A DNA stretch of 64,000 bases, from the NCBI GenBank assembly GCA_903813345.2, contig CAIIXF020000001.1, positions 6,758,001-6,822,000 on the forward strand, read 5' to 3'. The stretch's first letter is position 1, and each line of letters begins with the position of its first letter. The notes under the pieces are model-generated. The model was not told the origin of the DNA. It did no database searches and saw only the letters and a list, made by a program, of their open reading frames with translations. This document shows, one piece after another, positions 2,132 to 63,592 of the stretch. The stretch comes from Owenia fusiformis. Its lineage: Eukaryota. The position numbers were made by a program, and so were the translations under genes.

Positions 2132-5100
2132 CTTTCTGCGAATGAAGCCCTCGAGACACTTTGCTATATCATTTCCATTCTCTGCATCAATTGCTCTCTC
2201 CTCTTCAACCTGAAACAATAAATAAGAAAATATTGAGTTCTCAGTGTTGTACCAAGCCCTTGTGTTATCAAGTCTTGCATCTCCATTTTTGCCCATCTTT
2301 CTCAAAGATGAATACTGTGACAGTGATTTGATGCAACACTTTATGCCTTGCTACTCACAAAGCCCTTCAAACAAACCACAAGCCTTCAGTCATGGATATA
2401 TCCATGACTGAATATATCAGAGTTGGATCTCAAAGACATATGAATCTGGGGGCTTTTTCGTATGAGTGTAACCTAAGAATGCAACAACGTGGTCTACTTT
2501 TGGTTGAACAGAAACCCTTGACCCGACCAAATCATGAAAGGTTTATACGATGCTGTATAAATCCGGATTTTAACTAGAACAGATACATGTATACATACCA
2601 AGGCTACTACATCACTGTATACATCTGCTGGTACATCACCAGGAGCAACATTCACAGAGGCAGCTCCAGCTTGGTCTCTGCCTAGAGCTGCATAGTGCTG
2701 TAGGCCATTACAGGAGCCATCCTGGTGCACAGGGAAGTGGCAGATATGCTTGGAGATTGAGGGAGACCTGACAGCATTAGCAATCTCCATGCAGCATGCA
2801 AGAGTCTGCCAAGGCTCATCTGAACTCTGCCACCATTTGTTACCCTGTAATAATTACATCACTCAGTACAACATCACAATGGGGGTTCTGAATTGATTTA
2901 ATAATTTATTGTCTAATGTACATTACATCACTCAGTACAACATCACAATGGGGGTTCTGAATTGATTTAATAATTTATTGTCTAATGTACATGGATCAAG
3001 CAATCATCATCGGCCTCTCTCTACGTGAATGAAGATAGGGAATAACACACCAATGTCATTACCCTAGGATCTACCAAATATACACTACCCGTCACATGAG
3101 TACTGACGGTGGTTAGGGGAAGCTTAGCTACTAGACCTTGTCTCCCAGGCCCCCCGACCGAGACCTCTCACCATAAACACAGATTGCATGACATGTGCGT
3201 ATTTAATACAGGTGATGTCTCAAGACATTGTCTAAGTCACCACTCCCAAAAATAAGTTCAACACCCAGTATTGTCATAAATTTAAACCATAAATGTACAA
3301 ACGATATATTTGTATGGCATTTATAATGGACACATATACATGTACATGTTTTGATGATTTGATGAATTGGTGACAAAAACTTGATGTTGATAAGTCTGAA
3401 CTAGATGAGAATACATACTGTCATGGGGTTATCAGCAGAATCTAAGATGTCTGCCATATGGTCATCGGCAAATGCAAGTCGGTCTGCATTTGAAGATCTG
3501 TAAATGGATAATGACATACCATTGTCAAATATTAGAAAGAGACAACATCTTATACTAATGATCATCACCAAAATATTACAGGCCTCAAGATTAATTTTTC
3601 TTCTATGCCTGATTAACTCCCTTTCCTCAAAATGGAATTTGTCACTCACCTTTTTTTGAAGCCTGTGAGGTTTATGAGGTGAATCTTCAACCAATTCAGG
3701 CCACTGTCACCCAGTGGCTTACCCTGTGCAAACTGTAGCATACCACGCACGACATCGCTACCTGAAACAGTAATTAAACAGTAAATGATCTCAAAGTAGA
3801 AATAATATTTTCTCAAGTTATAACCATAACAATGAATGTACCTACAGTTAAGTATATTTTTCTTAGATGAGTGTCTGTGCCAATCTCTTGAAGACTGAAG
3901 ATAAAACATTTAACATGAATTACTTGTGGCTAACCTAGGTGATTGAAGTGAGGTGGACATGGGTATACTCTGCCTCTGAAGTCCATGTTGTGGGGAAACC
4001 AAAATATGCAATCTCGAAACTAAAACAAGAAACAGTGATATTTAGCACTTCAAAGAGCAAAATGGCTGCCATGTTACTTAATCAGCATACCAAAAACTTA
4101 ACCAGAATGATGTTGACAAAAGTGTGCTGTTGAACCTGTTAAAATTACAAGTTGAACAATTAGCCAGTTTTCCTCCTAAAGTGTGAAAAAAGGCATTATT
4201 TTCAAAAATAAATATCAAAAATATCAAAAAAGTTCCACTACTTTGAATATATGTTGTTTTTACCTGATTTGCAATGGAAAGCCTGTAGAGCTCATTGCAC
4301 CATAAACTGTACATTTCACTCTTCTGTTGTTTAAGGTGCAGTCTATCTTGGTAGACCTGAGCCCGCTCCTTACGGTCCATGTTTCTAAAAGACAAGCAAC
4401 GCATTCATTGAATATATATGTACTCATGTTACTGTCAGACACATAAATGCTGTAACATGTTTCTGTATGATATTCATATAGAACATTTTCATGTTAGACA
4501 AAAACAATTGCATCATATATATATTCATGTACATACGGATTCTTGTAATAAACATGTATACTTTAATATAACAACAGTATTGTTCTGATTTACTGATCCA
4601 AAATACTTAATAGAAATTAATTTTTAGGATAATTTTCTACTACTTTTGATAGCGTTCCAATGCACTTACTTAAATAAATGAAGAAAATAAAGGAACCAGT
4701 GTAATTCAAATATCTTCTTTTTCATATATAATTATTTACTGTATTGCCACTCACCTGTCCAGATGTGGTATTGATGGGCACTCTGATATCGGGGGAGGAA
4801 TATCAAGATTTTTATCTCCTTTTGAGTTGAACACATCAATGATAATGTCCAGGACCTACAAGATAACAGAAATGTTGAACCAGAACAAGATACACACTGA
4901 TTAATTTCGCACTTTGATGAGAACACAAACCACCAAGTAATTTACCCAGCATTAAATACCTAAGTATGCTCTAGCATGTCTACAGGTATTTTCAAATTGA
5001 ATGGATTAGTGGTTTAACTGTAATAATGACATTAGATTTATTTGCTACGATTTTCATGGCGTCAACCCACCCATCCAGACAGACACAAACATGTATGCCC

Positions 5101-8100
5101 ATCAGCACAAGACCCATACAATACAGCACACAAAATTGCGATAAAAATATTTTTATATACATGTACATACATATCTGCTATTCCAAAAATGTAAGGCTTT
5201 AAATTTGGAATTATGTCCTAAAAGTTGATGGAATCTTCTAAATGTTCTTGTGTTCAATGAACCAAACAATGATGGATTAATTGTGCATCAACAATCAACA
5301 ACTTAGTTTTCTGTCTATACTAGGCATGCTCACACACCAAACCATTCAAAATGCATTTCATTGCACTCTTGGGTGCTATATTGTTATCAATTTGTTATTG
5401 CACCTTTGTTTATCATTGTGTTTTTTTAATTTGACTTACTTCATTGTTGATCTTCCATGCACAGCTACTGAGTGTGTTAAGTGAGTCCAAGTGTGTTTTT
5501 CTAATTTGACTTACTTCTTTGTTGATCTTCCATGCACAGCTACTGAGAGTGTTAAGTGAGTCCAAGTGTGTTTTTCTAAGTTGACTTACTTCTTTGTTGA
5601 TCTTCCATGCACAGCTACTGAGTGTGTTAAGTGAGTCCAAGTGTGTTTTTCTAATTTGACTTACTTCATTGTTGATCTTCCATGCACAGCTACTGAGAGT
5701 GTTAAGTGAGTCCAAGTGTGTTTTTCTAATTTGACTTACTTCTTTGTTGATCTTCCATGCACAGCTACTGAGAGTGTTAAGTGAGTCCAAGTGTGTTTTT
5801 CTAATTTGACTTACTTCTTTGTTGATCTTCCATGCACAGCTACCACTAGTAATCAGGATTTGGTGTGAATGGGACATTTCTGGTGTTAATTGGTATGAAA
5901 AATAATTTTACTACCATCTAACACCAAGTCACACCATAAAACTGGTGTGACTTGGTATGAAAGGATTAAGAGATTAAACCCCTGCTGTTCAACACTGAGT
6001 CATGCTGTTTGGCTGGTGTGAGATGGTGTTAGAATAAATTTTAATCCCTTTGATCTCTACAAATCAAAATCCACACCAAGTCACACTGAAAACTTGGTGT
6101 TACTTAGTAGTAAAATTTTCATAGTTCTTGATTGCAATTTATAATTCCTTTAATCTTTTGATCTGCTTATTATTGTATTTTTTCTAAGGGATTTGTCAAC
6201 ATGTCTAGAATGGAAACTAAACTTGAATTTTTATTTAAGAACATATTTATTTATCATTAATTACTTGATTTTAGTATATGTTTAAAACTTTAATAGTATT
6301 CTTATAGGCTTAGTTTGAGTCTAATTCATCTTTTCCAAATAACTAGAGAAAAAACTTAATCGTCAAACATTCTAATTATTATTAATTGTTTTAAACCTTA
6401 AAGATTAAAAAAAACTTGATTTGTCAAGTTATTAAAATAGCATTAATGGATGAGTGTCACAAACAGGATTAGTGAAGCAATTGAGCAACTGAGTATAATA
6501 AACAAAAATATCAAACATTGATGTCACGTTTTGTTTTTTGGTATTGCTACATTGTTTGAATAGATATGACTTAACATCTAATGAGCCTCATTTTGGACAT
6601 ACAGATAAACAAGCATAGTAAAAAAAAAGTAAGGTAATATGTAATGAACTACCCATCACTGCCATGTTATTAATACATTTAAATGAAAATTGACAAGGAT
6701 GGGCAAATGTGCCCATACTGTAAACATAATGGAATGACCTGCTCAGAGTGAAGTGTGGGCAGATGACAATTTGACTACTAAATGTCAGGTTTAGAGTCAA
6801 TAATAGGATTAGTATGCCCATAGATGATTCCTAATTGCCCATAGATAGTCCTAATGTGCCCACACAGTACTATAGACATAATGGAATGACCTGCTCAGGG
6901 TGTCACTGAAGTCTGGGCAGATGACAATTTGACTACTCATAAATGTCAGGTTTAGAGTCAATAATGGGATTACTATGCTCATAGATAATTCCTAATTGCC
7001 CATAGATAGTCAAAATGTACCCATACATACTACTGTAGACATAATGGAATGACCTGCTCAGAGTGTCACTGAAGTGAGGGCAGATGACAATTTGACTACT
7101 CATAAATACTACCCATATATTCCATCATATGGTAATGGACGTTTTGGCCCCATGTATGCTCAATGGACTTATCCATTTGTTGTTCAGTGTTGGGTGGCAT
7201 GCCAGGCCCTGAACAAAGAGCATTAAGAAGCAACCATCATGTAAAACATATGCAGTTTACAATTGGGTGTCCCATATGGCATTAAGTGGTCAGGCAGCTA
7301 AAGTCACCAAGAAAGTTCCATCAGAAACCCCCAAGACTATGACAGAGTATATGTCAATGTCACCATCTACAGATAAATGTTGGACATTCTCTTTGTTAAA
7401 AGAGGACTATAGGAGCTCAAGAACAATTGCACATTTTTATGAAAACCTCTACCCTAATGAGAAACCAAATTTATGTGACATTGACCCAGTATGTAAGTTT
7501 GTTGGGGAGTGGTAAATATCAAGTGATAATAATGAACGGCCAGAAGAGATAGATTCCTTCTTTCATTCTCATAATATTAAATGTGATACTAAAATATATC
7601 ACTTGTCTTTTGTGAGCAAACCCTTAGCTTTAGCTGTTGAAGGAGATAGAGTTTGGTTTGTAAATTACAAATAAGATGAAGAGTTATCCTTTTAGTTATA
7701 TGTATATTGTTGTACATGGCTAGCATATTATTTATTACGATAAAAAGACTAAATGATTTCAGTAAGTACACATAAGTTATTGCCTCTGTTGATTTGTCCA
7801 CTTAGGAATACAATTTCAATTGTGATGATTATCTATATCTCCCAAAAGTATGCAAACATATTGAATAAATATAAAACTAATTTTAGAATTAATTTATTTT
7901 AATAAATCATAGTGGATTTAATTATGAAATTACTTAATTGCTGTATTGGAACACTGTACTAATAATCTATAGAAACAAAAACAATAAGTATAAGGCAATC
8001 AAGAGATCAAATACATGTTAAAATGCAATCAAGGATTAAGAAAATGAAGTTTTATGTTTTACTACCGATTCACACCAAACTTTCAGTGTGACTTGGTATG

Positions 8101-11100
8101 AATTTTTGTTTGTAGAGATCAAGGGGATTAAATTTGATTTTCATACCATCTCACACCAGCAGTATGGTGTGACTCAGTGTTGAACAGCAGGGGTTTAATC
8201 TCTTAATCCTTTCATACCAAGTCACACCAGTTTTATGGTGTGACTTGGTGTTAGATGGTAGTAAAATTATTTTTCATACCAATTAACACCAGAAATGTCC
8301 CATTCACACCAAACCCTGATTATACTGAGAGTGTTAAGTGAGTCCAAGTGTGTTTTTCTAAGTTGACTTACTTCTTTGTTGATCTTCCATGCACAGCTAC
8401 TGAGTGTGTTAAGTGAGTCCAAGTGTGTTTTTCTAATTTGACTTACTTCTTTGTTGATCTTCCATGCACAGCTACTGAGTGTGTTAAGTGAGTCCAAGTG
8501 TGTTTTTCTAATTTGACTTACTTCTCTGTTGATCTTCCATGCACAGCTACTGAGTGTGTTAAGTGAGTCCAAGTGTGTTTTTCTAATTTGACTTACTTCT
8601 TTGTTGATCTTCCATGCACAGCTACTGAGTGTGTTAAGTGAGTCCAAGACTGGGTAGAGCTGCTCTGGGGGACAGGCTGCCATCACTTCATGCTGCTCAG
8701 GGTGAGCTTCAGGGAGACGGACAAGTTTTGCTGTAAAAATACAGTATAAGATATATACCAGGTCGTTCAATAAGTTTGCAGAAAAATCATTCAACCTGGT
8801 GGTGGTATCTAGCTCATGTTTTTGAAAATTATGTGAAAGAACACCATCATGTTTTTAATATGTCAAACTTAAGTGGTGTGGGAAACAAGTCTTTCAGACA
8901 GGACAAATATGACCAGTCCATCTGCGTAGACCTGTGTCATAGCTGGGCATTACAGGTAAATCATTAGCTTGCAAATGTCCCTGTGTTTTTTTTTACTTAC
9001 TTGAGGCAAGCATGAAGCCCCCAGATCTGACAGAGGTCCAAGGAATAGGTGGCACCAGCATAGGTACTTCATAGATGTCGAAGGTCAAGCTTCGAATCCC
9101 TACATCTCTGTATAAACGCACTAATGCTGGATGTGGCTGAGTAAAAAAGAAAGAAAAAATAATATCATTGAAGTGTTAAACTTTTATGTACAGTTGTAGT
9201 GAACAAAAAATTGATTTCTACACATATTAAGATCAGTATTACTAACATAATGAGAATTAGGAAACGGCGACTCCACAGAGTAGCAAATCCCACCGAACCA
9301 AACATTGATCAAATACCCCATCATATTTTGGACATTACATGATAAAAATAAAACTTGCACTTAATCCTATTGCTCAGGTGTTTTAAGTTATTATAAATCA
9401 TTTTTCCATGAAAAATGGCAGCCATTTTGAATGAGCAGACATCTTGAAAATTCTTTCTTGACCAGAGTCCTATGTCTCTAAGCCAAAACCACATCTCAAA
9501 CATTACATTTATTGTGAAAAATGGTGGCCAACCATTCTGACCTGAGCATCTGTCTTGAAAATTCCTTCTTAAACTGACTCCCTCAAACATCAGCATATAA
9601 AATTTGAACCAAATCCATCAATTTGTATTTGAGTACATAAACATGGTTAAACATGGTATTTGCTATTGCAACCCTATATCCCTTTGGAATTCAAGCTAGA
9701 ATATGTTTGAAATATCAAGAATATGTTTGAACATAAGCCAAATAAAGTAACTCTATCATCACATGGTTATATTACCTTGACTTCTTCCTTCATTTTGTTG
9801 CTATGGTTACGGTATATGTTGTAGAATGCTGGAATACTTCTGAAACAAAAAAAATAGATTTTTAAATTGAGATGATATTCAAATGTTGAAATAACAATAA
9901 TCTTACAGAAATGTATCAATTTTCGAGTATCAGAAGAACAAAGGACAGAGAAGAAATCTTAAAAAGAATTACTACTTACATCCATTGGGCTAATCTCATC
10001 TGATAAATGTAAATATAAGTTGCATGGCATGTTAAACTGGAAGCGCCCGATTAAACTGAATCATGTGATCTAATTATGCACAATGACTTATACATGATTT
10101 CTGTCGCAGTGTTGCGACAGCCAATCAGATTGCGAGTTCTTAATCGGGGAAATGCTATTTGCTTATCGCAGGGGGTAAAAAGAAAGAATATATTCTGGAT
10201 TTTGAAGCCCTGTGATCAGAGGATGATCAATGTAATGTCACTTACTTGATTCCTGAAACAGGGGTATTGCCTGCAGCTATCTTTGTCTCAGACAGGATGA
10301 TGTTGTACATGAAGTGACCCACCTAACAAACAAGATATGATATTATCCTATGGGAGCTTTAAGATTCAATGGGATTAGTCAATTCAATACAATGCATATA
10401 TGTTTTCAAAATTCCAAAGATATTCCTTATTAACAATATTCATTATTAATTTTTGTTTTATATTATTAAAACTAAAAGGAATATACGCTTTTTTTCCTAT
10501 GCTTTGCAATACTCACATCTCTCATGACCTGTTCGGGCCAAAGTGGATCTTTGACATCCTGAAATTAGTGAAAATGTATTTTTTTAATCATTTTTTTCAA
10601 GTGAACATATTTTGTATTCTATAAGTTCGAAACAAAAGTAAAATAGTGCTGTCCCTCGTTGACTTTAGCTGCCAGTCTTCAATGTCCCCTTCAAACAGTT
10701 TTTATTGGAGTTCAGAACTCCTTCCCCATTCAATCTTTTTCAATCACTGTTAAAGTGCTTACATGTATACTGTCTTTGTGGCAATTAGTACTTGAAGATG
10801 CTACTTCAACAATAACCAAATAATTACATGTAGGTGTACATTCAACAAAAAAAATGAATTTACAATTATTACTTACCAGTGTAGGTCCATCGGTGAACTT
10901 CTGGCAAAGAGTTTGCCACATTTCTCTATGATTTCCTTCCTTTAACTGGCTGGCATTGTACTTGCTTATGTATTCATGATACATCTTACGAATCTGATAA
11001 ATAAAACACACACAGTAATGAATATCTGGATTTGAAGAATGGTTCACCATGTAATTTATCCAGCATTCACAAAACCTATTCAGTTGTTGGCAATAGTCTG

Positions 11101-20938: not shown

Positions 20939-21920
20939 GTCTAGTTTCTAGACTAACCTGTCTCCTGTGCTACTATCCTTACCTTTTTCGTGAATTGTTG
21001 ATTGAAGAGTTTCACAATTAAGGCATCTTTGGAAGGAAACAAATTTATTTTGTACATTGGCAGCATCGGATATCTTAAGGTGTAGTCTTAATCCATGAAT
21101 TCGAAAAATTTGTGACATTTTCACGTTTTAAAAATTATACAACCGGAAGTCAAAGTTTGGGAGCATATGATTTTTTATTTCAATAAATGTATTTTCAATT
21201 AACGTATTTGAGAATGAATTTTATAAACATAGGCTATCTAGAAATTTAGAAAATCGAATCGCCTGGACATTAAGATATGCAATCATGCTACAACATTTGA
21301 GTAAATGTGTTTTGAAATTTGAATACTAAGCAGGAAGTATTGCCTGCGCATGCTCAATTGACCGCCAATTTTGATTTTTGATTTTAGGACATCTTATCAT
21401 GCAATTATCAAATACATAGCTATTTCAATTACATGTTTTCGTGAACCTAAGAATCTTGAATAAAATTTAGACATTTCCAATGAAAAGCTGTGCATGTAGA
21501 TCTAAAGGTAGGTAGATATTTTACGATTCGAAAAAAATCTAAGTTACAAAACAAGGCAAGCCACAAGAACCTCAAGTGGCGTACATGTATCAACTGACAT
21601 ACAGTTGGGGACATAAATAAATGACAGGTGGATTTGCTGAAGTGAGGATTTGCCATGTTAAAAATAAGAGAATTTTCAAGAGGCCATACATCAGTGGATG
21701 AGATTATACAAAATGTAAAATATACAAATTTTAAGGGATATATATCTAGACAATATTGGGAATTATGGGCTTTCAGACCACCATAATTAGGAAATGGTGA
21801 TCGAAAATCGACCTGTCATTTATTTTTGTCCCCAACTGTATCAGATATTGGTTGCCAAAGCTGGAAGAATAAGTTTATGTTCTTTTTACCTATTCTTCAA
21901 GATTCGGCCACAAATAGATG

Positions 21921-24203: not shown

Positions 24204-24736
24204 TTTAAAGCTATGTGGAATTTGGTCTCATTTCATTATAGCCATCGTTTTTCATTAAAAATGTAATCTTTGACAACTAAGATACCAGTTGACAGATTTG
24301 GTTCAAATCATATATGCATATTACAAAATCTTCACCACTATCCATTGCCCCTCTGGCTCTACATATCTAACCCTATCCACAAATTGGTTAAATTCACTGC
24401 TATAAACATGTTGTCATCTTGAGTTCTTTTGACTTTTCTGATGCCTGATTTTTGAAATTGTGCCAAATGCACCAATTAAGATAATGAATTTGCCATGTTT
24501 TTAGATCCATCTTCACCTCAATTGATACAATGTAGCAATTTGTGACATTGATAGACAGGTATCAGATATGTCAATCAACATAACTTTTGATGATCTTTCC
24601 AATGATATATCACACTTAACTTGGTACCATCCATTAAGGTTTTGGATGTAGCAGGAGGGACAGGACTTTTGTTCAGTGAGACTTTTTGTGTGAAATTTAT
24701 ATCTTTTTCTTTCCAGGAAAGAGGAGATAGCTTACC

Positions 24737-27038
24737 ATGCGGATCCAATGTAGTATCTGTACTGAACTTTATGAACATGATAGCATTATATCTGGGCTAC
24801 CTTGTGGCCATCTATTCCACAGGGAATGTGTTCAGCGCTGGTTTACAAGCAGCAACAAAAGAGACTGTCCCCAATGCAGAAATCATGTGGATAGGAAAAA
24901 AGTTATTGATAAACTTTATTTCGTGGTTGGTGACTATGACAATGGTGAAACAGAAGACAATGCACCCGAAAGGATAAAAAACCAGTTGGATGATGCCAAA
25001 GTTACTATACGGGAGATTAAGAAAGACAAAGAAGCTGCAATAGAGAAATATGCAAAACTGCAAAGAGTTATCAATGAAATTAGTGATGAAAAACACAGTT
25101 TAAAGCTATTGTTTGAGCAAGAACAAGCTAGTAATGAAGGACTCCAGAGACAGGTTGCCTTCCTCCAGGCTCAACAGAGGGATGCTCAGAGAGCAAAAGA
25201 AGAGTGCAAAACTTACAAGAAAAGGGTTACAGAGTTAGAAAATGTAGAGAAAGTTGTTAAAGGTAAATTCTTATTTAAGATAATCAAACATTCTGTAATT
25301 TTTCAGATTAGACACTTCCATTGTATAATTTGAACTGAATGGAGAATTCTTAGGGAAGAATACACCAGAAAATAGGCCATCAAAATTTGAATTATCCCAA
25401 AGAAAATTCATGTCTACTTTATAACATGATAATATGCAATGTTTTTAAACAGAGGCTCATGTGTTATAGAAATCCAGGAAGAATGTCAGAATGACAGAGT
25501 TTAAACCACTTTGGCTTATATGCATAGCCTAATCCAATGTAATTAAAGTGTGGTATGTGAAATGTGAAAAATCGTGAATTTATTTAAAACCAACTTTTAG
25601 AGAGAGGTCACATATATTTTTATGAGCGATAATTTACACCAATGCATTCATCCTCACATGTTTTTTGCTGAAAAATGTGTTCATAAATTAGCAAGAAATG
25701 AACTCATCCATGTAGGAAAGTGGTTCAGAGAAAAATGCATTTCAAAATTTTAGTTCTCATAGAAACCAATGGTTCAATAATATTTAAAACATATATTCTT
25801 CCTTTCAACCTGGTTGGACATTAAACATTATTACCACCTTGCCGGACCTGTTCTAAGGGTATTTTAGTTTGGTTGAGAAAGCTTATATTTTGCTATATTG
25901 ACCTTAGCAATAGTTGACACCATAGCAGCAGGCCATAGTGGCAGGCCAAAATCATTTCAGCCCAGTGATGTTCCTTGGGAAATGAGATATCGTTCAGTGC
26001 ATAACCCTTATGTATGTTCTTTTTGTATAACAGCCTGCCTTCTGGTTAAGAGAGTGATGCTAGGCTAAATATATTTCAAAACTCCAGCTATTAAATGCCC
26101 AAAATATTTTAGTTAGCTGCATAGAAAATATCTGAGTGTACTTAATGCATCTACACTGACTGGTGTTTCAATTTAATTAATCGTAACATTGTCTATTTAC
26201 AGGCTGTGAAAGTGAGGTACGGGAACTGATATCCCAGCGTGGAGATGGCTCGGGGAGTATGAAGGAGCTTGCACAGTGGAATATCACACTCAAGGGAGAG
26301 TTGACACGAACAAAGAGAGACAAAAGATTCATGCAATCTGAAAATGACAAGCTACGCATCCAACTATCGAATGTTAAAAAAGCATTGATGGATAAAACTA
26401 CAGAATGTACTGCAATCAAAGAACAGTTCAATGATTCTGAAAATGATTTGAAACACACTGAGAAGGAAAATGAAAAGTTGAAGAAAAAGTTGGCACTGCT
26501 TATGTCATCACTAGGGTCACCTGGAGATACTGCAGCAGGTTTTGCCCACAGGCTTATGAATGAGAGTCCCATGCCTCTGCCCCCTAAACTCTCTACCCCC
26601 TCTTCAAGTGGCCAGATAGACCTTGATTCTGGATCCTTTGTAGTGCCATGTACACCAGAGATTGTAAAACCTAGTCCAAATACTCAGATTAAAAATGACT
26701 GTGAAAATAATGGAATTAAATACATCAAAACGACATCATTAGCTAATCCCTCCAAGAAACGTAAAGCTGATGAGCCTGTCGAAAACTTTGTAGTAGGTTT
26801 AGGAAACTTGAATTTGTTCAAGAAAAAAGGTTTAATTGAAAACAGTCGCATTCGTAATGGCTACAATGGTATGGGTGGTCATGAAAAATTCATTGAAATG
26901 AGGAAAGGACCTCAAATGAAACCTTTAAAAAAGCCAGTTCAGAAATCAGGTCAACTTCCCAAAGCTTCAAAGTTGGCGAAGAAAAACCCTCCTCTCCCCA
27001 AGTTAGATTTTTACTTGTCACAGAATACATCTGATTAG
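24737..27038 (+). CDS. TRAIP: E3 ubiquitin-protein ligase TRAIP (about 453 aa), coding exons 24737-25262 and 26203-27038
   Basis: N-terminal RING-H2 CSIC...CGHLFHRECVQRWF...CPQCR, long coiled coil, EVRELISQRG...KELA segment, IRNGYNGMGGHEKF motif and terminal PIP-box-like PKLDFYL. Intron AAG/GTAAAT...TTACAG/GC is phase 1 and keeps frame (526+836 nt). Confidence 0.93.
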
Positions 27039-51800: not shown

Positions 51801-54800
51801 AAGTTATTGGATTATTAGCTGCTTGTGTGTTGGCGACCGGATCTAGGATTGGCAGAGATATATTCGTGGATTATATAAGTTGCAGTCTAGAGGCGCCTTG
51901 GAGACACCTTGCAGAGTTGCAGTTTGTGAGTGTTGATTGATTTATGTTGTTCCTTTCTCTGATAGATTTGATGTATTGATCCATTTGTTCAGCGTAGCCA
52001 TTTTGTGACTTCATTTCTTCTTCGTCTTCTTCCCATAATTCATTGCGTGTCCGCCATCTTGGATAACTTCCGGGAGGCGAGTGACTCTGGTCTAATCTCA
52101 GTTTACTGATTGACATTCCTGAGTTATCTCGCCCAGAGCTGTTGTGATCTTGTTGAGAGACGTACTTACTCCCACATATGTGTGTGAGTTGGGTCTAATC
52201 TCATCCTTGATTGAAATTCCCGACTCATTTCACCAGAGTGGCGATTCGGAGCGAGAGGAGCTCCCATTGACGTGTATTGACTACTCCCAGGAGAGGGACA
52301 ACTCTGAGAGAGAGTGTGTTCCTATTGATGAGAGTTGGCTACTTCTGAGAGGTGACGACTTAGAGCAAGTGTCTTCTATTGAGGTGGTTAGCTGTATCTA
52401 GGGAGAGAGAGTGACAATTAGGAGCAAGAGTGCTTCCCCCTACGTGATCTGATAAGTCTCAGTAGAGAGACAACTTCGACCAAGAGGTGACTGACCATTG
52501 AGGTGGCTGACCTGCTAGCACAGAGGCAGAAATCTTGGGTCTAATCTCATCTTTGATTGATATTCCTGACTTCTTCTGTCTGGAGCTAGAATTCTCCCAT
52601 TGAAGGTGATTTCCACCCCTGCAGCAGAGCTGACAGGTAGAACCAAGCAGAGCAGGCAGAGCCGAGTAGATCAGACAGGCAGAGCTGAGCAGAGCAGAGC
52701 CGAGTAGAGCAGACAGGTAGAGCTGGGCAGAGCAGAGCCGAGTAGAGCAGGCAGAGCAGAGCAGGTAGAGCCGAGTAGAGCTAACAGGCAGAGTCGTGCA
52801 GAGCCGACAAGCAGAGCAGAGTAACCTAGACAGCTGTAGCAGAGCAGAGCTGACAGGTAGAGCAGAGTAGACTGGCAGAGTAGAGAGCAGTAGAGAACGA
52901 GCAGAGAAGACAGGCAGAGTCGAGCAGAGCTGACAGACAGAGCCGAGTAGAGCAGACAGCTGGAGCAGAGCAGAGTAGACAGCAGAGCAGGCAGAGCAGA
53001 GACAGACAACTCGGAGTCAGAGTGTTGATTCTCAGTGTATATAGAGATATTTATATTTGAGTTGTTGAGCCATAAAGGCATTTGAGCACATTTGTGAAAT
53101 TTATTGTTATATTATAGTGTTCAAAAGATTATTAAAATCCCGTAATTGATTGTTTTGTATATTCCTATATTCTCCATCTCCTAGCTCAGTGACAGCCGAA
53201 GCACCAAACTAGCTCGGCGCCTGTGAGAAACACCTCCGAATCCCTTATCATCGCCACCAGACCTTCTCCGAGGGAGTACGGGTACTCGGCGGGAGTCTGG
53301 CGCGCGACAATACCATACAAAAAGATCTTCAAGTTAATTTTTAACTCAACTTTAAGGTATGGAATATTTTCAAGAACAACTTAAAAGGAGAACTTAAAAG
53401 AGTTCAATGTCAATCTGCAATATAAGTTATTGAATGATTTGAAGTGCAATACAGGATATATTCTGCTTGAGAATTCCGTATTGGCACTCAAATTCGTCTC
53501 GTTCCAAAACAGAATTCTCGAGAACGAGACGAAGTCAAGTGCCAATACAGAATTCTCGAGCAGAATATATCCTGTATTGCACTTCAAATCATTCAATAAC
53601 GTTTTTATCGTGTGATCGATTGTCCCCTCCGTACCGATATTTTCTGTATTGCGACGGAGATGATCAACGGGGACAATCTCAGTAGCAATACAGCCTGGTA
53701 CAGCACAAGAACTGACCAATCAGAGGGCTTCATTTTACAGATCATACGACAATCAAATATATTGCTTAATAAGTGGAATACAATGAGCAAAGCAGTGATT
53801 ATACATACTCAAGTGCAATAAAATCACTAGGGAAGGGCATTTGTACTGAAGGGAGTGTTTTCGGTATATTTTTAAGGACATTTTTAAGTACAAAAATGCA
53901 CTGAAAAATGTACTGATTTTTGAAAGCAATTTTAAATATAATATATATTTAAAATTGCTTTTAAAAGTCAGTATATTTGATGAACTGAAAAATATATATT
54001 TAAAATTGCTCTTAAAAGTCAGTGTATTTTTCAGTACATCTTTGAACTTAAGAATGTCCTTAAAAAGTCAGTATATTTTTTGGTACATTTTTACCTAAAA
54101 TGTTCTTAAAAAGTCACTACATGAATATTTTTCAGTGCATTTTTGTACTTAAGAATGTCCTTAAAAAGTCAGTATATTTTTTGGTACATTTTTACCTAAA
54201 ATGTTCTTAAAAAGTCACTACATGAATATTTTTCACTACATTTTTGTACTTAAAAATGTCCTTAAAAAGTAGTCAGTATATTTTTCAGTACATATGTCTC
54301 AATTTTAGAGTTCCTGATCAAGATGTCTAGAATTACACACACCTTGATTGCAAATAGAAGGGAGAAAGGAGCCCCCCTCCCCCACCCTATAAATTGCTTG
54401 CTACGTCAGTGTATCGAGTAAATGTTCCAATACAAATGAACAATTGTTAATACAAGTGATTCTTCTGATTCTAAAACAGTTAGCAGATAAACCCGGATCT
54501 CTTAAATTGGTATATATATCTTTAATCAGCATATGTTTCAGCATGTGCACTAAAGATATTAAAAGCCCATGGTTTCAGTACATTTTTGTAATTAAAAATG
54601 TCCTTAAAAGTCAGTATATTTTTCAGTATATTTTGTACTTAAAACGCCCTTAAAAAGTAAGTTCATTTTTCAGTATACTTTGTACTTAAAATGTTTTTAA
54701 AAAGTCAGTATATTTTTCAGTACATGAATATACTGAATTTTGTACTTAAAAAGTCAGTATATTTTTCAGTACATAAATATACTGAATTTTGTACTTAAAA

Positions 54801-55626: not shown

Positions 55627-56094
55627 CTGCAACATGAGAAGAGATTGTCTTTACTCTATATACATAATACAGTAATCTCCCAAGCATCAAAGCAAGTGGG
55701 CGCAGTACCCACCTGAGATTTTGAAAATAAGCTTGGATCCACCTGAAAATCCATTTGAACCCAATTGAAAATGAGAAAAAAAATCATGAAAAATGACTTT
55801 GTTCAACTGGCAATGATTCAACAGAAATTGATTAGAATTTAAAAACATAGATGGCATTACAGTCCTTCCTCCCATTAAAACCATTTACACATATAAATAA
55901 TCAGCACGTTTTGACCAATTTTGGTCTGAGTTATGCAGTAGAGATAATTTTTGAAAAACAACATTTCAATGATTCAAAATGTGTTCACGTTTGATACATT
56001 TCACTGTACTATACACAAATATATATCGAGGTCATTGGATTCCAGGACAGTATACTTTCAACAGTTAAAGCATTTGGATTGAGTTTTCAAAATC

Positions 56095-57693
56095 ATGGGA
56101 CATTTAAAAGTGTTCATGCTTTGTTGCATGATGATGGTTGTTTTTCCGGTGCCTTGTCATGGAAGTAAAATATTAATGTATCCTCTTGATGCAGGCTATA
56201 ATAGCAGACTTATGAACATGTTTAAACTCGGCAGAATGCTCATTAAGGCCAACCACCAGATCACATTTGTTGTTTCCGACAGAATGAAAGAAGATGCTTT
56301 GTTTAAATTGGCAGAGGGAGGAAAAGTGGATTCTAACCTTAATGTAATCAGCTATAAAACTCCACCAGTGGATCCGACAGTAATGCACGTGAGTACTGAG
56401 AACCAGGACTTTCTTGAAGCATTGATCATAAGGGACTTTGCACAGACTTTGAATCTTTTTGGTCAAGCATTAAGTATTGCACTGAATAGCACACTTCAGG
56501 ATAAAACTGTCATTGACCAATTGAATGCACAACAGTTTGACCTTATTATTGCGGATGAATTTTCACTGTATCCAAGAGTCATTGCTGCAGAAAGAAACAT
56601 TCCGATCATATTGTATTGCAATTTTGGCCCCATGTCTTCTGATTCTGATATCATTCCGAGGTACAGTTTGGCATATGTAAATGCAAATTTCAATAGATTC
56701 AGTGATGTTATGACATTTCTTCAAAGGCTGGAAAATGTATGGGATTATCTAAAAATTCAATGGGAAATGTCTGGTATCTACACATTAGCAGAAGCTGTTT
56801 GCCAAGAACATGGTTACGGGAAGTCTTGTGACAATATCAGGGGGATCCACAAGACTGTTAACCTTGTGCTCATGAACAGAAATGATGTTACTTATTACCC
56901 TGCACCCTATATGCCACATATTATTTCCTCAGAAGGGTTCTTCCTTGATAAACCAAAACCTTTGGATAGTTACTACACAGATGTTATAAAAAGGTCAGGA
57001 AGAGATGGTATCATCGTGGCTAGCTTTGGGTCAATGTTCCGGAGATTAGCACCGAAATATCGCACCATTTTTGCTGAAGCATTTTCTAAAATGCCGCAAA
57101 CTGTAATATGGAGCTACGAAGGTGAAACACCAGAAGGTCTTGGAGATAACACAATTGTTTCAAAATGGATTCCTCAAACTGATCTACTGGCAAATCCTGC
57201 AGTTAAACTGCTCATAACACAGTGCGGGGCTTCTTCATTATTTGAGGCATTAAACTGTGGTCTTCCTGTTGTTGCGATTCCCTTTATTGGGGACCAGGAG
57301 TACAATTGTCTTAAACTTGCGGACAGAGTCAAATCAGCCAAGTTTGTCAAGTTGAAAACTATTACGAGTGAACAACTACAAAGTGTAATGGAAGAGGCTA
57401 TAAATGATAAAACATACAGAGCAAATGCAAGGAAAGCCACATCAATATATCATGACCAACCCATTGATCCAAGAAATAAAACATTGTTTTGGATTGAGTA
57501 TGTCATTCGCCATAAAGGAGCAGCACACTTGAGATCAGCTGGGGAAAATCAGCTGAACTTTTTTCAATATTATCTTCTCGACATAGCTGGATTAGTTGCA
57601 GTCATTTTGTTTACTGCTTTGATAAGTTTGATTGTGATCCTGAAAGCAGTAATTAATTGCTTGCTAAAAACTTTAAAACATAAAAAGGACTAA
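56095..57693 (+). CDS. UDP-glycosyltransferase (UGT family, 532 aa), intronless CDS
   Basis: Signal peptide, FDLIIAD, SDVMTFLQRLEN, GIIVASFGS, signature WIPQTDLLANPAVKLLITQCGASSLFEALNCGLPVVAIPFIGDQ, FWIEYVIRHKGAAHLR, FFQYYLLDI, transmembrane helix and KHKKD ER-retrieval tail. Confidence 0.96.
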   Translation: MGHLKVFMLCCMMMVVFPVPCHGSKILMYPLDAGYNSRLMNMFKLGRMLIKANHQITFVVSDRMKEDALFKLAEGGKVDSNLNVISYKTPPVDPTVMHVSTENQDFLEALIIRDFAQTLNLFGQALSIALNSTLQDKTVIDQLNAQQFDLIIADEFSLYPRVIAAERNIPIILYCNFGPMSSDSDIIPRYSLAYVNANFNRFSDVMTFLQRLENVWDYLKIQWEMSGIYTLAEAVCQEHGYGKSCDNIRGIHKTVNLVLMNRNDVTYYPAPYMPHIISSEGFFLDKPKPLDSYYTDVIKRSGRDGIIVASFGSMFRRLAPKYRTIFAEAFSKMPQTVIWSYEGETPEGLGDNTIVSKWIPQTDLLANPAVKLLITQCGASSLFEALNCGLPVVAIPFIGDQEYNCLKLADRVKSAKFVKLKTITSEQLQSVMEEAINDKTYRANARKATSIYHDQPIDPRNKTLFWIEYVIRHKGAAHLRSAGENQLNFFQYYLLDIAGLVAVILFTALISLIVILKAVINCLLKTLKHKKD

Positions 57694-59632: not shown

Positions 59633-60780
59633 AACCAGAACAACGGCAACGCCAAAGCGTAGCGAATCCCATCGAACATTTTTCAAAAGGGGCACCTTCT
59701 ACCAAAAGTGTCATTAGACAGTGTGCCATGCTTATAATATTCACATACCAAATATGAACAAAATCGCTCTACTACTTTTCGAGTTATAGTAAAATACGTT
59801 AAAATGGTGGCCATTTTGAAAAATGGCCGCCTTCTACCAAAAGTCTCATTAGACAGTGTGCCATGCTTATAGTATTCACATACCAAATATGAACAAAATC
59901 GCTCCACTACTTTTCGAGTTATAGTAAAATATGTTAAAATGGCGGCCATTTTGAAAAATGACCGCCTTCTACCAAAAGTGTCATTAGACAGTGTGCCATG
60001 CTTATACGTATTCACGTACCAAATATGAACAAAATCGCTCCACTACTTTTCGAGTTATAGTAAAATAAGTTAAAATGGCAGCCATTTTTCAAAATGGCAG
60101 CCATTTTTCAAACTGTCTGCCATTTTTCAAAATGGTCGCCTTCTTCCAAAAGTGCCATTAGACAGTGTGCCATGCTTACAGTATTCAAATACCGAATATG
60201 AACAAAATCGCTCCACTACTTTTTGAGTTTTAGTAAAATAAGTTAAAATGGCGGCCATTTTTCAAAATGTCTGCCATTTTTCAAAATGGCCACCTTCTAC
60301 CAAAAATGTCATTAGACAGTGTGCCATGCTTATTGTATTCACATACCAAATATGAACAAAATCGCTCTACTACTTTTCGAGTTACAGCAAAAATCGTAAA
60401 ATAACGAGTAAAGGCGGCCATTTTTCAAGATGGCTGCCATGTGCTTTTTTAATATCTACATTTCTAGCTTTATTAATGTCCTATATATTTTTTTTTACAT
60501 TTAAAACATATTGCTATTACAGTTTTACATATTGCACCTAAATTACTGTAAAATCTGCACTAAAATGGCAGCCATTTTTAAATGAGTGGCCATTTTGAAA
60601 ATCGGCTTTCGAGCAGAACTTTTACCCCCATAGGCTATATGTGTACAAAATATGAATAAAATCGGGCCAACGGTATTTGAGTTATTGCCCGGACGGACGG
60701 ATGTACGTACAGACGGATGGACGGACGGACGGACGGAGGCGTTCCCTATATCCCTCCGAACTTCGTTCGATGGGATAAAA
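59633..60780. mobile_element. Helentron-associated (HINE-like) element carrying a 135-bp tandem array
   Basis: Units at 59701, 59836, 59971 and further degenerate copies; (GGAC)n microsatellite at about 60690-60738; terminal palindrome tatccctccgaacttcgttcgatgggata followed by an A-run. Confidence 0.7.
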
Positions 60781-62019
60781 ACCAAAAACTGTAATTTCAA
60801 GAGTTACATATACAGCAACTAGTACAAGTTAATTGAAAGTTCTACTTCAACAAAGTGTATAGTATTTACAGAAAATTTGACTTTTTGACGTCAAAAGCAG
60901 CAATTTCTCGGAAACCGGGGAACTTGGGGAACTTGGGAAATGGGAAACCGCGATGATTAGGTCAAATAGGCATTATGGATATGCATAAAATGAATGTGGA
61001 TATGACTCAATCTGAATAGCAGTTTTAATTATGTGGCCAATGTTTTTTTGTTTTTTTTATAATAAATTTATTTCTGATTTCATAAACATATCAATACAAA
61101 ACAGTGCATTTGATACATAATACAGTATAGAAATATACATGATATAAAAAGATATAATAGGATTCAGAGATAAACATTTATTTGAGGATCGTTGAAAGCC
61201 ATTTAACAAAATTAATTAAGCTCACTATCAATCACTGAAAATAGATGTTTATAACATACAATATTTCTACATATCACTAAGTTTAGATCAATATTTTTCC
61301 ATTTATCAATTTATTCTGACAATTAACACCACTTGGTGTAAATTGCTAAATAGATTATTGTAATAAGAATGTTTCTGAAGTGGGTTATGTTGTTTCCTAA
61401 AGGCCAACCAATAATTAAATGTTTATATTTGATATGACATTTTAGAATCTGACTAAATTTTCCCCGGGGGGTTCACTGTGTACAAAATTTGGTGGGGGTC
61501 CTAGGCTGAACCCTCAGATATCAATATATTCCCATACCAAAATGTCTAATTTGGATGTGTTCCCATACCAACCAATATAGTGTCCGAAAGCCATACCAAA
61601 TGCCTAAATATGAGACCAATGCCATACCAAATGTCTAAATACAGGACCAATGCCACACCAATGCTATGACTGGTCCAAAGTAGAATATTTCCCAGGAAAA
61701 AAGCTAATATTCAATCTGAAGAAGGTCCCAAGAAGAAGGTGATTTTTAAGGAAAACATTCCAAAACAACCTCAAATTTAAGGAAATGTGTAACGACTAGA
61801 CCAATGCCATACCACAAGTGTGAGATAACATATTTTCCATGACCATTCTCATTCCAGAAAATGGAAAAATGTGACCATTGCCGTACCTCAAAAGTCATAA
61901 TGTGGGGGCATTTTCATACCAGATCTTAAAATGTGGGTCCATTGCCATACCAAATGTCAAACAAGAACACAAATGTGTACAAAATGTCCCCACCAATGGG
62001 TGATCCCGTCTAATGGTTA

Positions 62020-63592
62020 TCTTGAAAATGGGTAAACAAGACTTAATTTGAGGATGGAAAATCCAAAATGGCGACCTTAAAATTTACCCAGAATGCCATG
62101 AAAATTTGAAATTGATCCATCACACAGTTAACCAGAAAACATGTAAACAAGACTTTACAGACAAGATTTTAGGATGGAAAATCCAAAATGGCTGCCTTGA
62201 CATTTACCCAAAATGTAAAAAAACTAATCAGTTTGTAAATTTTCATACTAAAATTCATCCCTGAAAATATGAAATTGATCTTCCGAATGGTTCACCTGAA
62301 AACGCATAGACAAGACTTTACAAACAAGATTTTAGGACAGAAGATCCAAAATTGCTGCCTTGACATTTACGAAGAATGCCAAAAAACTAAACAGATGTAG
62401 ATTTTCATACTAAGAATCATCCCTGAAAATTTGAAATTGATCTACCAAACGGTTCACCTTAAAACGCGTAGACAAGACTTTACAGGCAAGATTTTTAGAC
62501 GGAAAATCCAAAATGGCTGCATTGACATTTATCTATACTGCCAAAAAACTAATCAGATCTCGATTTTCATACTAAGAATCATCCCTGAAAATTTGAAATT
62601 GATCTACAGAATGGTTCACCTTGAAATGCATAGACAAGACTTTACAGACAAGATTTTAGGACGGAAAATCCAAAATGGCTGCCTTGACATTTACCCAGAA
62701 TGCCAAAAAACTGATCAATTCTAGATTTTCATACTAAGAATCACCCCTGAAAATTTGAAATTGATCTAAAAAACGGTTCACCTGAAAACGTGTAGACAAG
62801 ACTTTACAGACAAGATTTTAGGACAGAAAATCCAAAATGGCTGCCTTGGCATTTACCCAGAATGCCAAAAAACTAATCAGATCTAGATTTTTATACTAAG
62901 AATCATCCCTGAAAATTTGAAATTGATCCACCAAACGGTTCACCTGAAAACGCGCAGACAAGACTTCACAGACAAGATTTTAGGACGGAAAAATCCAAAA
63001 TGGCCGACAATAAAAAAGTGATTATGAGTTTTTGCTAATTTCCTTTTACAAAATTATCACATATAACTACTGTTAACAATAACATAGGCTTTTACAAGAA
63101 AGTACATCTGAAATTATTTATAAAGCTACTAAATAGTTAAAGTATGAAAACTCAAAAACACCATTCAATATGATACAAAGTATTATCGCGCGCTAACTTT
63201 TCTTAAGACATTCAAAATGGCTGCCATGACTGAGCTAACAGGTTCAAAACCTAATCAGATCTAGAATGAAGTGAGCTGAACAAGATATTAAAGTTTTAAA
63301 AGCAACTGTGAAGCCGTTTTTCTTAAAGTTTGCAGACAAGGATTTTAGCATTTGACTTCAAAATGGCCGACAGGAAGTAGGTTTCGAGTTAATTTTTTTT
63401 CATCCACATCTGTATGCGCTCATAAGTTATCCCTGAAAATTTGAAGGTGATATCTGTAGCGGTTTTGGAGAAAACTCCCGGACGTACGGACGGACAGACG
63501 GACGGACGGACGGACAGACGGACAGACGGACGGACGGACGCGCCTAGGCCGACAATATGGCCCCACACTTTGTGGTGGGGACATAATAAAAA
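62020..63592. mobile_element. Second HINE-like element carrying a 162-bp tandem array
   Basis: caagactt recurs near 62148, 62311, 62473, 62635, 62797 and 62959; (GGAC/AGAC)n at 63480-63540; terminal hairpin atggccccacactttgtggtggggacat followed by an A-run. The left boundary is approximate. Confidence 0.7.

Follow-up and report, generated by a model that had tools for sequence, protein, structure and literature searches.

A tandem array of ten exon–intron junction units, interrupted by a putative DNA transposon, in the POLRMT gene of the annelid Owenia fusiformis

The window analysed here is a stretch of 64,000 nucleotides (nt) from the genome of the annelid Owenia fusiformis (NCBI GenBank assembly GCA_903813345.2, contig CAIIXF020000001.1, positions 6,758,001 to 6,822,000), in which a tandem array repeats the junction between a POLRMT exon and the intron that follows it. 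We assign the window to the O. fusiformis POLRMT locus by sequence similarity, since the deposited protein P0002 maps to it, and this protein has the Pfam domains PPR (residues 416–461), RPOL_N (571–880) and RNA_pol (1006–1406) and matches human POLRMT structure chains over residues 416–1406 (E = 7e-248). P0002, a protein of 1406 amino acids (aa) labelled 'unnamed protein product [Owenia fusiformis]' and DNA-directed RNA polymerase, is distributed on the minus strand of the window over about 27 exon-sized pieces, from position 21118 down to 2111, with 95–100% identity in most of the pieces between 21118 and 2596. The lowest identities (57–85%) are found where the high-scoring segment pairs extend into introns or into the array, and the residues after about 1170 lie outside the window.

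Two POLRMT exons, both on the minus strand, flank the array. The first (8597..8730, 134 nt; supported by tblastn, BLASTP and the sequence) encodes ...KLVRLPEAH..., ends in phase 0 and is followed by a donor GT at 8596–8595, and residues 840–893 of P0002 map to 8746–8585 by tblastn. The next one (4755..4855, 101 nt; tblastn and sequence) encodes 33 residues followed by (R), and residues 890–923 of P0002 map to 4855–4754 with 100% identity by tblastn. The coordinates of both exons (8730–8597 and 4855–4755) had been given correctly in an earlier reading of this DNA, made from the letters alone and called here the sequence-only reading. The whole intron between them (8596–4856) measures 3,741 nt, of which 675 nt are nine extra units of the array and 2,482 nt an insert within it; its unrepeated rest (4856..5416, minus strand, delimited from the sequence) runs down to the acceptor AG at 4857–4856.

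The array consists of ten head-to-tail units of 75 nt, in register and all on the minus strand, and the sequence-only reading, which had described a 75-nt array with ten donors in POLRMT, is borne out by Tandem Repeats Finder (TRF) and by the donor matches. The units are arranged in two blocks on the minus strand, both defined by TRF, the unit listing and the donor matches. The upstream block (8323..8648; 4.3 copies of the 75-nt period with 98% matches in TRF) is formed by units c1 (8648–8574), c2 (8573–8499), c3 (8498–8424) and c4 (8423–8349) and the first 26 nt of c5 (8348–8323). The downstream block (5417..5840; 5.7 copies with 97% matches, reported by TRF at 5417–5843) contains the last 49 nt of c5 (5840–5792) and units c6–c10 (5791–5417). 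Unit c1 spans the border of the real exon ending at 8597, which P0002 confirms, and shows that the unit is made of 52 nt of exon (8648–8597) and 23 nt of intron (8596–8574), rather than 51 and 24 nt as first described.

Every unit carries a splice donor. The donor GTs of the upstream block are at 8596, which is the authentic one, 8521, 8446 and 8371, and the six pseudo-donors of the downstream block are at 5814, 5739, 5664, 5589, 5514 and 5439, all on the minus strand. The 12-mer GAAGTAAGTCAA is present in 10/10 units, in agreement with the earlier statement that GAA/GTAAGT is kept in every copy, and its ten matches in the window are all on the minus strand and inside the array, against an expectation of 0.00 in dinucleotide-preserving shuffles. 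No further occurrence of the 75-nt unit was found elsewhere in the 64-kb window.

The units vary at five of their 75 positions (19, 48, 49, 62 and 66), with pairwise differences of at most 3/75, and several of them are identical (c1 = c3; c4 = c8; c5 = c6 = c9), while c7 and c10 have one variant, K-to-N, in common. The peptide variants SQL/SQI and INN/INK noticed before are indeed present among the units, together with INR in c2 and IKK in c10, and the replacements seen in the extra copies are K-to-R, K-to-N, I-to-L and R-to-K. As to the origin of the duplication, the sequence-only reading had proposed slippage at CTTGGAC-type microhomology. However, the flank before c1 (...CCCAGT) and the unit end (...AACACA) have no terminal base in common, the flank after c10 (ATGATAA...) and the unit start (CTTGGAC) have no initial base in common, and no microhomology was found at the breakpoint when both flanks were compared.

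The gene contains a further tandem repeat, a 69-bp duplication (2.0 copies, 100% matches) located at 2853–2992 in a minus-strand POLRMT intron, which stops 8 nt (tattacag) short of the exon starting at 2844. The branch-point region belonging to this 3' splice site has thus probably been copied. It is a second very young tandem duplication adjoining a splice site in POLRMT.

The two blocks of the array are separated by the insert of 2,482 nt (5841..8322), delimited by the in-register spacing of the units, the junctions and an end-to-end alignment. It breaks unit 5 after base 26, and the array is thus not contiguous. The insert has terminal inverted repeats (TIRs) of 266 nt (8057..8322 and 5850..6115) that are 91% complementary, or about 353 nt at 84% when gaps are included, with clear identity between the two ends starting at TAATCAGG on both. 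It also contains an internal tandem repeat (6716..7107; 161–163 nt, 2.5 copies in TRF). A GTA is duplicated at both junctions, but the downstream junction has an extra, unexplained 6 nt (CTAGTG). Its longest stop-to-stop frame is 100 aa, the five internal open reading frames (ORFs) gave no Pfam match at E ≤ 0.01, and no second copy of the insert is present in the 64-kb window. From its sequence organisation, we classify the insert as a non-autonomous TIR DNA element. Both TIR arms are transcribed within the POLRMT intron and, if paired, could form a long double-stranded stem joining the two halves of the array.

Since the insert interrupts unit 5, the array must be the older of the two. Variants are shared across the insert, with c4 identical to c8, c5 identical to c9, and the K-to-N change in c7 and c10, which supports an expansion by repeated unequal exchange, as had been suggested, or by block duplication before the insertion. 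The array, or its copy number, could also be an artefact of assembly. Tandem repeats are prone to mis-assembly, but here the units differ at five distinct positions in a non-periodic pattern, a unique insert of 2.5 kb with diverged termini is placed precisely in register within one unit, and the array spans 3.2 kb in total, a distance that long reads readily exceed; we consider an artefact extremely improbable.

Another reading would give the repeated donors a role inside the intron, as binding sites for U1 that help to define the upstream exon or that suppress premature cleavage and polyadenylation at the AATAAA hexamers of the transposon. U1 suppresses intronic polyadenylation, ten strong U1-type sites lie on both sides of the insert, and the transcribed strand of the insert has four AATAAA (7898, 7736, 6251 and 6235). 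Nevertheless, the array predates the insert and hence did not arise for this purpose, and such hexamers are common in AT-rich introns (the GC content of the window is 35%), so that a role of this kind appears very improbable.

The reading frame of the exon at 8730–8597 stays open through c1–c4, and the first in-frame stop (8269–8267) falls within the insert. The description of the array as in frame therefore stands for the first four units and fails for the array as a whole, which the insert splits. Splicing from the donors at 8521, 8446 or 8371 would lengthen the protein in frame by 25, 50 or 75 residues, as calculated in the sequence-only reading, and the exons extended in this way would have an ordinary size of 209–359 nt. 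Only these three donors could have such an effect. Donors 5–10 (5814–5439) cannot give in-frame extensions because the stop precedes them, and the ten donors can no longer be treated as equals when six of them lie behind a stop-containing transposon. Moreover, 61% of random 8-codon stretches of the window are stop-free in a given frame, which, multiplied by 1/3 for the length, gives a chance of about 0.20 (0.61 × 1/3) for a unit that is both a multiple of three and stop-free. The in-frame, stop-free unit, which had been taken as a signal, is therefore unremarkable.

The exon–intron junction corresponds to residues 712/713 of human POLRMT, with exon residues 1–42 aligning to 669–710 of the full-length chain 9mn4_E, and falls between the RPOL_N and RNA_pol models of P0002. 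Residues 824–1151 of P0002 align to residues 270–591 of T7 RNA polymerase; the 44-aa exon used as a structure query matched human chains only, and the position in T7 is hence approximate. The AWKIN motif is also present in T7 RNA polymerase near residues 327–331, where the N-terminal domain borders on the thumb, and the alignment agrees with this placement. Conservation at the junction was analysed in the best 120 of 1,207 POLRMT hits, with P0002 included among the 120, by comparing each of them by BLASTP with P0002 residues 840–960. Over the 29 residues that surround the junction, none of these proteins has an insertion (0/120).

This conservation is relevant to the proposal that the array is a functional, tunable ladder, in which a regulated choice among donors 1–4 would produce stepwise insertions in POLRMT at the conserved AWKIN segment. 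The in-frame geometry fits this proposal, and a caveat in favour of tolerance is that each insertion would restore native sequence to the left and right of the junction, so that one copy could perhaps fold as usual. In contrast, 120/120 animal POLRMTs show strong conservation and no gap in this segment, the deposited protein has a single copy, the residue changes in the extra copies give no sign of constraint other than that of their youth, the frame property is of the kind expected by chance in about 20% of cases, and a transposon has been tolerated within the array, with the frame ending after unit 4. The evidence does not favour regulation, and we regard the tunable ladder as very improbable.

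The same segment appears in several short predicted proteins. Five of these (P0126, P0127, P0130, P0137 and P0141) diverge directly after the residues homologous to WKINKE: they follow the pattern W-x-[IV]-N-x-x and then continue with V-S or V-T and unrelated sequence, and P0141 returns to VLDAILEVF after 35 residues. Such a divergence would fit read-through of the start of a GTx-AGx intron that other species have at this phase-0 position, and the position of this intron looks old on this sequence comparison. In addition, P0124 (95 aa) contains a 45-residue stretch of the same POLRMT segment twice, exactly and 5 residues apart, which may reflect either an artefact of assembly or, in a different organism, a tandem duplication of this region.

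Which donor is used can be approached from the deposited protein. BLASTP shows that P0002 has one copy of the segment, directly followed by VLDIIIDVF... of the next exon, as results from the first donor. The read-through translation of the exon and units 1–4 (P0001) matches a single protein among the long ones, P0002, and as a query it retrieved no other protein with the repeat peptide at 239–2000 aa or at 74–238 aa. P0002 is the only member of its 90%-identity cluster. An exhaustive representative search with P0001 gave 25 matches at E ≤ 0.001, none of them from Owenia; two are full-length POLRMTs, and the 13 inspected comprise five unrelated repeat proteins and POLRMT fragments that are read-through (five), spliced (two) or duplicated (one). 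A Pfam 'Serine_rich' match on P0001 (E = 2.2e-6, with no single stretch passing) was set aside as a repeat-driven artefact. The published outline of the O. fusiformis annotation describes an RNA-seq-guided procedure (STAR, StringTie, Portcullis, Trinity, GMAP, Mikado, Augustus and PASA) in which 99.29% of transcripts are supported by RNA-seq, a genome-wide figure that is not specific to POLRMT (PMC9977687).

From these data we infer that the first donor is used exclusively, or at least predominantly, and that the array is close to neutral, although several points weigh against this view. The use of the donors is deduced from a single gene model and by analogy to mammalian genes, and ab initio or protein hints may have contributed to the deposited model. 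POLRMT fragments derived from Owenia transcripts seem to be absent from the protein databases searched, and for this reason the missing isoforms are weak evidence. Short reads with less than 53 nt of upstream anchor cannot separate c1 from c3, because these two units are identical. In classical in-vitro work, the donor closest to the acceptor is also reported to be capable of prevailing when U1 is saturating. Finally, the donors are strong, with a 7/9 match to MAG/GURAGU (consensus as in PMC1557585), and IFI6 and CBS use their second and third donors, as summarised in the same source (PMC1557585).

RNA structure was considered as a cause of donor choice and rejected. The predicted mean unpaired probabilities of donors 1–4 (0.24, 0.21, 0.24 and 0.52) do not favour donor 1, and the fold of the unit with its flank (−6.7 kcal/mol) is weaker than that of shuffled sequences (mean −13.2 kcal/mol; z = +2.45). 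The exon-derived GACTCACTT (8644–8636) is complementary to the donor AAGTAAGTC (8599–8591) at 8/9 positions in every unit, and the two pair in the predicted fold of the unit.

Another reading is a leaky version of the ladder, in which donors 2–4 would see slight but detectable use and yield products with 25, 50 or 75 additional residues, as unregulated noise or weakly deleterious by-products. Donors 1–4 have an identical 12-mer, the extensions are in frame and stop-free, the resulting exons of 209–359 nt are ordinary, and the predicted accessibility does not set donor 1 apart. However, the deposited model uses donor 1 alone, F7 and the arrays with long units (81 and 100 bp) use the first donor only in the summary given in PMC1557585, and insertions at the junction are found in 0/120 homologues. 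We regard leaky use as unlikely. A more pronounced form, in which donors 2–4 are used at measurable and perhaps condition-dependent levels, as in human IFI6, and give POLRMT isoforms with 1–3 extra copies of 25 residues, seems to us rather improbable. If true, an essential polymerase would have an in-frame ladder of splice donors within its conserved core, at a place where 0/120 animal POLRMTs have an insertion.

Minisatellites whose first monomer spans an exon–intron boundary have been described in the human genes F7, IFI6, CBS, LMNB2 and PDGF, and by the dates cited in PMC1557585 they have been known since the late 1980s and 1990s. The phenomenon is thus not new. In a literature survey of 12 papers by titles and abstract openings, only PMC1557585 dealt with a junction-spanning array, and another article concerned splicing-associated repeats genome-wide. 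Borensztajn et al. (2006, PMC1557585) describe for F7 intron 7 a 37-bp unit, present 5–9 times, with splicing from the most upstream donor only; its pseudo-sites become functional once the authentic donor is mutated, and a 5'-to-3' scanning model was proposed (PMC1557585). In the other genes, as outlined there, IFI6 (6-16) intron 2 has 25 pseudo-sites, the first two of which are used besides the authentic donor, and CBS intron 13 has two pseudo-sites that are used, whereas only the authentic donor is used in LMNB2 (100-bp unit, 10–15 copies) and in PDGF intron 4 (81-bp unit, 16–18 copies) (PMC1557585).

F7, as described there, resembles the Owenia array in several respects: the boundary lies within the first monomer, identical pseudo-donors come after the authentic donor and have a single acceptor in common with it, and the normal mRNA results from the most upstream donor, as it would in Owenia. 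The two differ in copy number (5–9 in F7, 10 in Owenia), in the unit, which in F7 has 37 bp (4 of exon and 33 of intron) and is not a multiple of three, whereas in Owenia it has 75 nt (52 + 23) and is in frame, and in donor strength, which is weak in F7 (UGG/GUGGGU) and strong in Owenia (GAA/GUAAGU). Donor use in F7 was tested with 50 constructs, whereas in Owenia it is deduced from the gene model and analogy. Unlike F7, the Owenia case comes from an annelid, and a transposon divides the array. The minisatellites of IFI6 and CBS, which likewise span a junction and supply multiple donors, are from what is reported of them a real precedent for a donor ladder, but their units are shorter, the use of the donors is documented there, and the host in Owenia is a highly conserved segment of a polymerase. 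The unit of IFI6 has 12 nt. Closest in size to the 75-nt Owenia unit are those of LMNB2 and PDGF, which also span the junction and in which the authentic donor alone is used, as would be the case in Owenia. These are mammalian genes, and the summary in PMC1557585 contains no transposon interruption for them, in contrast to the Owenia array.

Tandem duplication of splice signals is also discussed in the literature as a way of gaining introns, in which multiple-of-three sizes permit alternative products (2010, PMC2891723). The parallel is that the mRNA is unchanged if the outer sites are used and that a multiple-of-three size allows in-frame alternatives; the difference is that there an exonic AG/GY is duplicated and creates a new intron, whereas in Owenia an existing donor is duplicated and the intron becomes longer. 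The Owenia array is a real example of a kind of repeat that is already known, and the discovery is a modest one.

Taken together, the array is in our view probably a near-neutral junction minisatellite with silent or nearly silent pseudo-donors, later hit by a transposon. It would have started with the tandem duplication of 75 nt, composed of the final 52 nt of the POLRMT exon and the 23 nt with which the intron begins, which unequal exchange would then have expanded to ten units, so that the strong donor GAA/GTAAGT came to be repeated nine more times within the intron. Later, a non-autonomous DNA transposon would have inserted into unit 5. The spliceosome would join the acceptor at 4856 to the most upstream donor, at 8596, and the extra units and the transposon would be removed as intron with the mRNA unchanged, leaving the nine downstream donors as silent or nearly silent pseudo-sites. 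In sum, an intron of about 584 nt would have grown to 3,741 nt.

Several other features were observed in the window. At 2–700 on the plus strand, an open frame running off the start of the window (232 aa) has a weak match to 7tm_1 (rhodopsin-type; E = 1.9e-5, 24.7 bits, under the cut-off of 30.5 bits). A POLRMT intron probably harbours a nested receptor gene here, since the frame lies on the opposite strand to POLRMT and the POLRMT residues after about 1170 are outside the window. On the other side, at 24731–27038 on the plus strand, a RING-finger gene (zf-RING_2, E = 1.6e-13) and, after it, an ORF of coiled-coil-like type are oriented divergently to POLRMT, which starts at 21118. The POLRMT model of Lineus longissimus (P0004, 1820 aa) also has RING Pfam domains, which suggests either conserved neighbours or a fused gene model in this species. 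Further along the plus strand, at 56083–57693, a single open frame of 536 aa has a full-length match to UDPGT (UDP-glucuronosyl/glucosyl transferase; E = 2.4e-87). Repeats include a degenerate AGCAG-rich array at 52646–53006 and several long-period tandem arrays (135, 154, 162 and 173 nt) at 59677–63004, with up to 5.6 copies and 87–93% matches.

The sequence-only reading had seen in the locus a natural test of how one of several near-identical donors is chosen, and in this respect it holds: several identical donors compete here in a natural setting. The locus would thus provide a non-mammalian natural test of the rule, worked out on human F7, that the first of identical donors wins, for which it is made useful by the strength of its donors and by the transposon that parts donors 1–4 from donors 5–10. 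The first three alternative donors should escape nonsense-mediated decay because they are in frame. The locus also shows how an intron may grow about six-fold with no change in the mRNA, by duplication of a junction and the subsequent insertion of a transposon.

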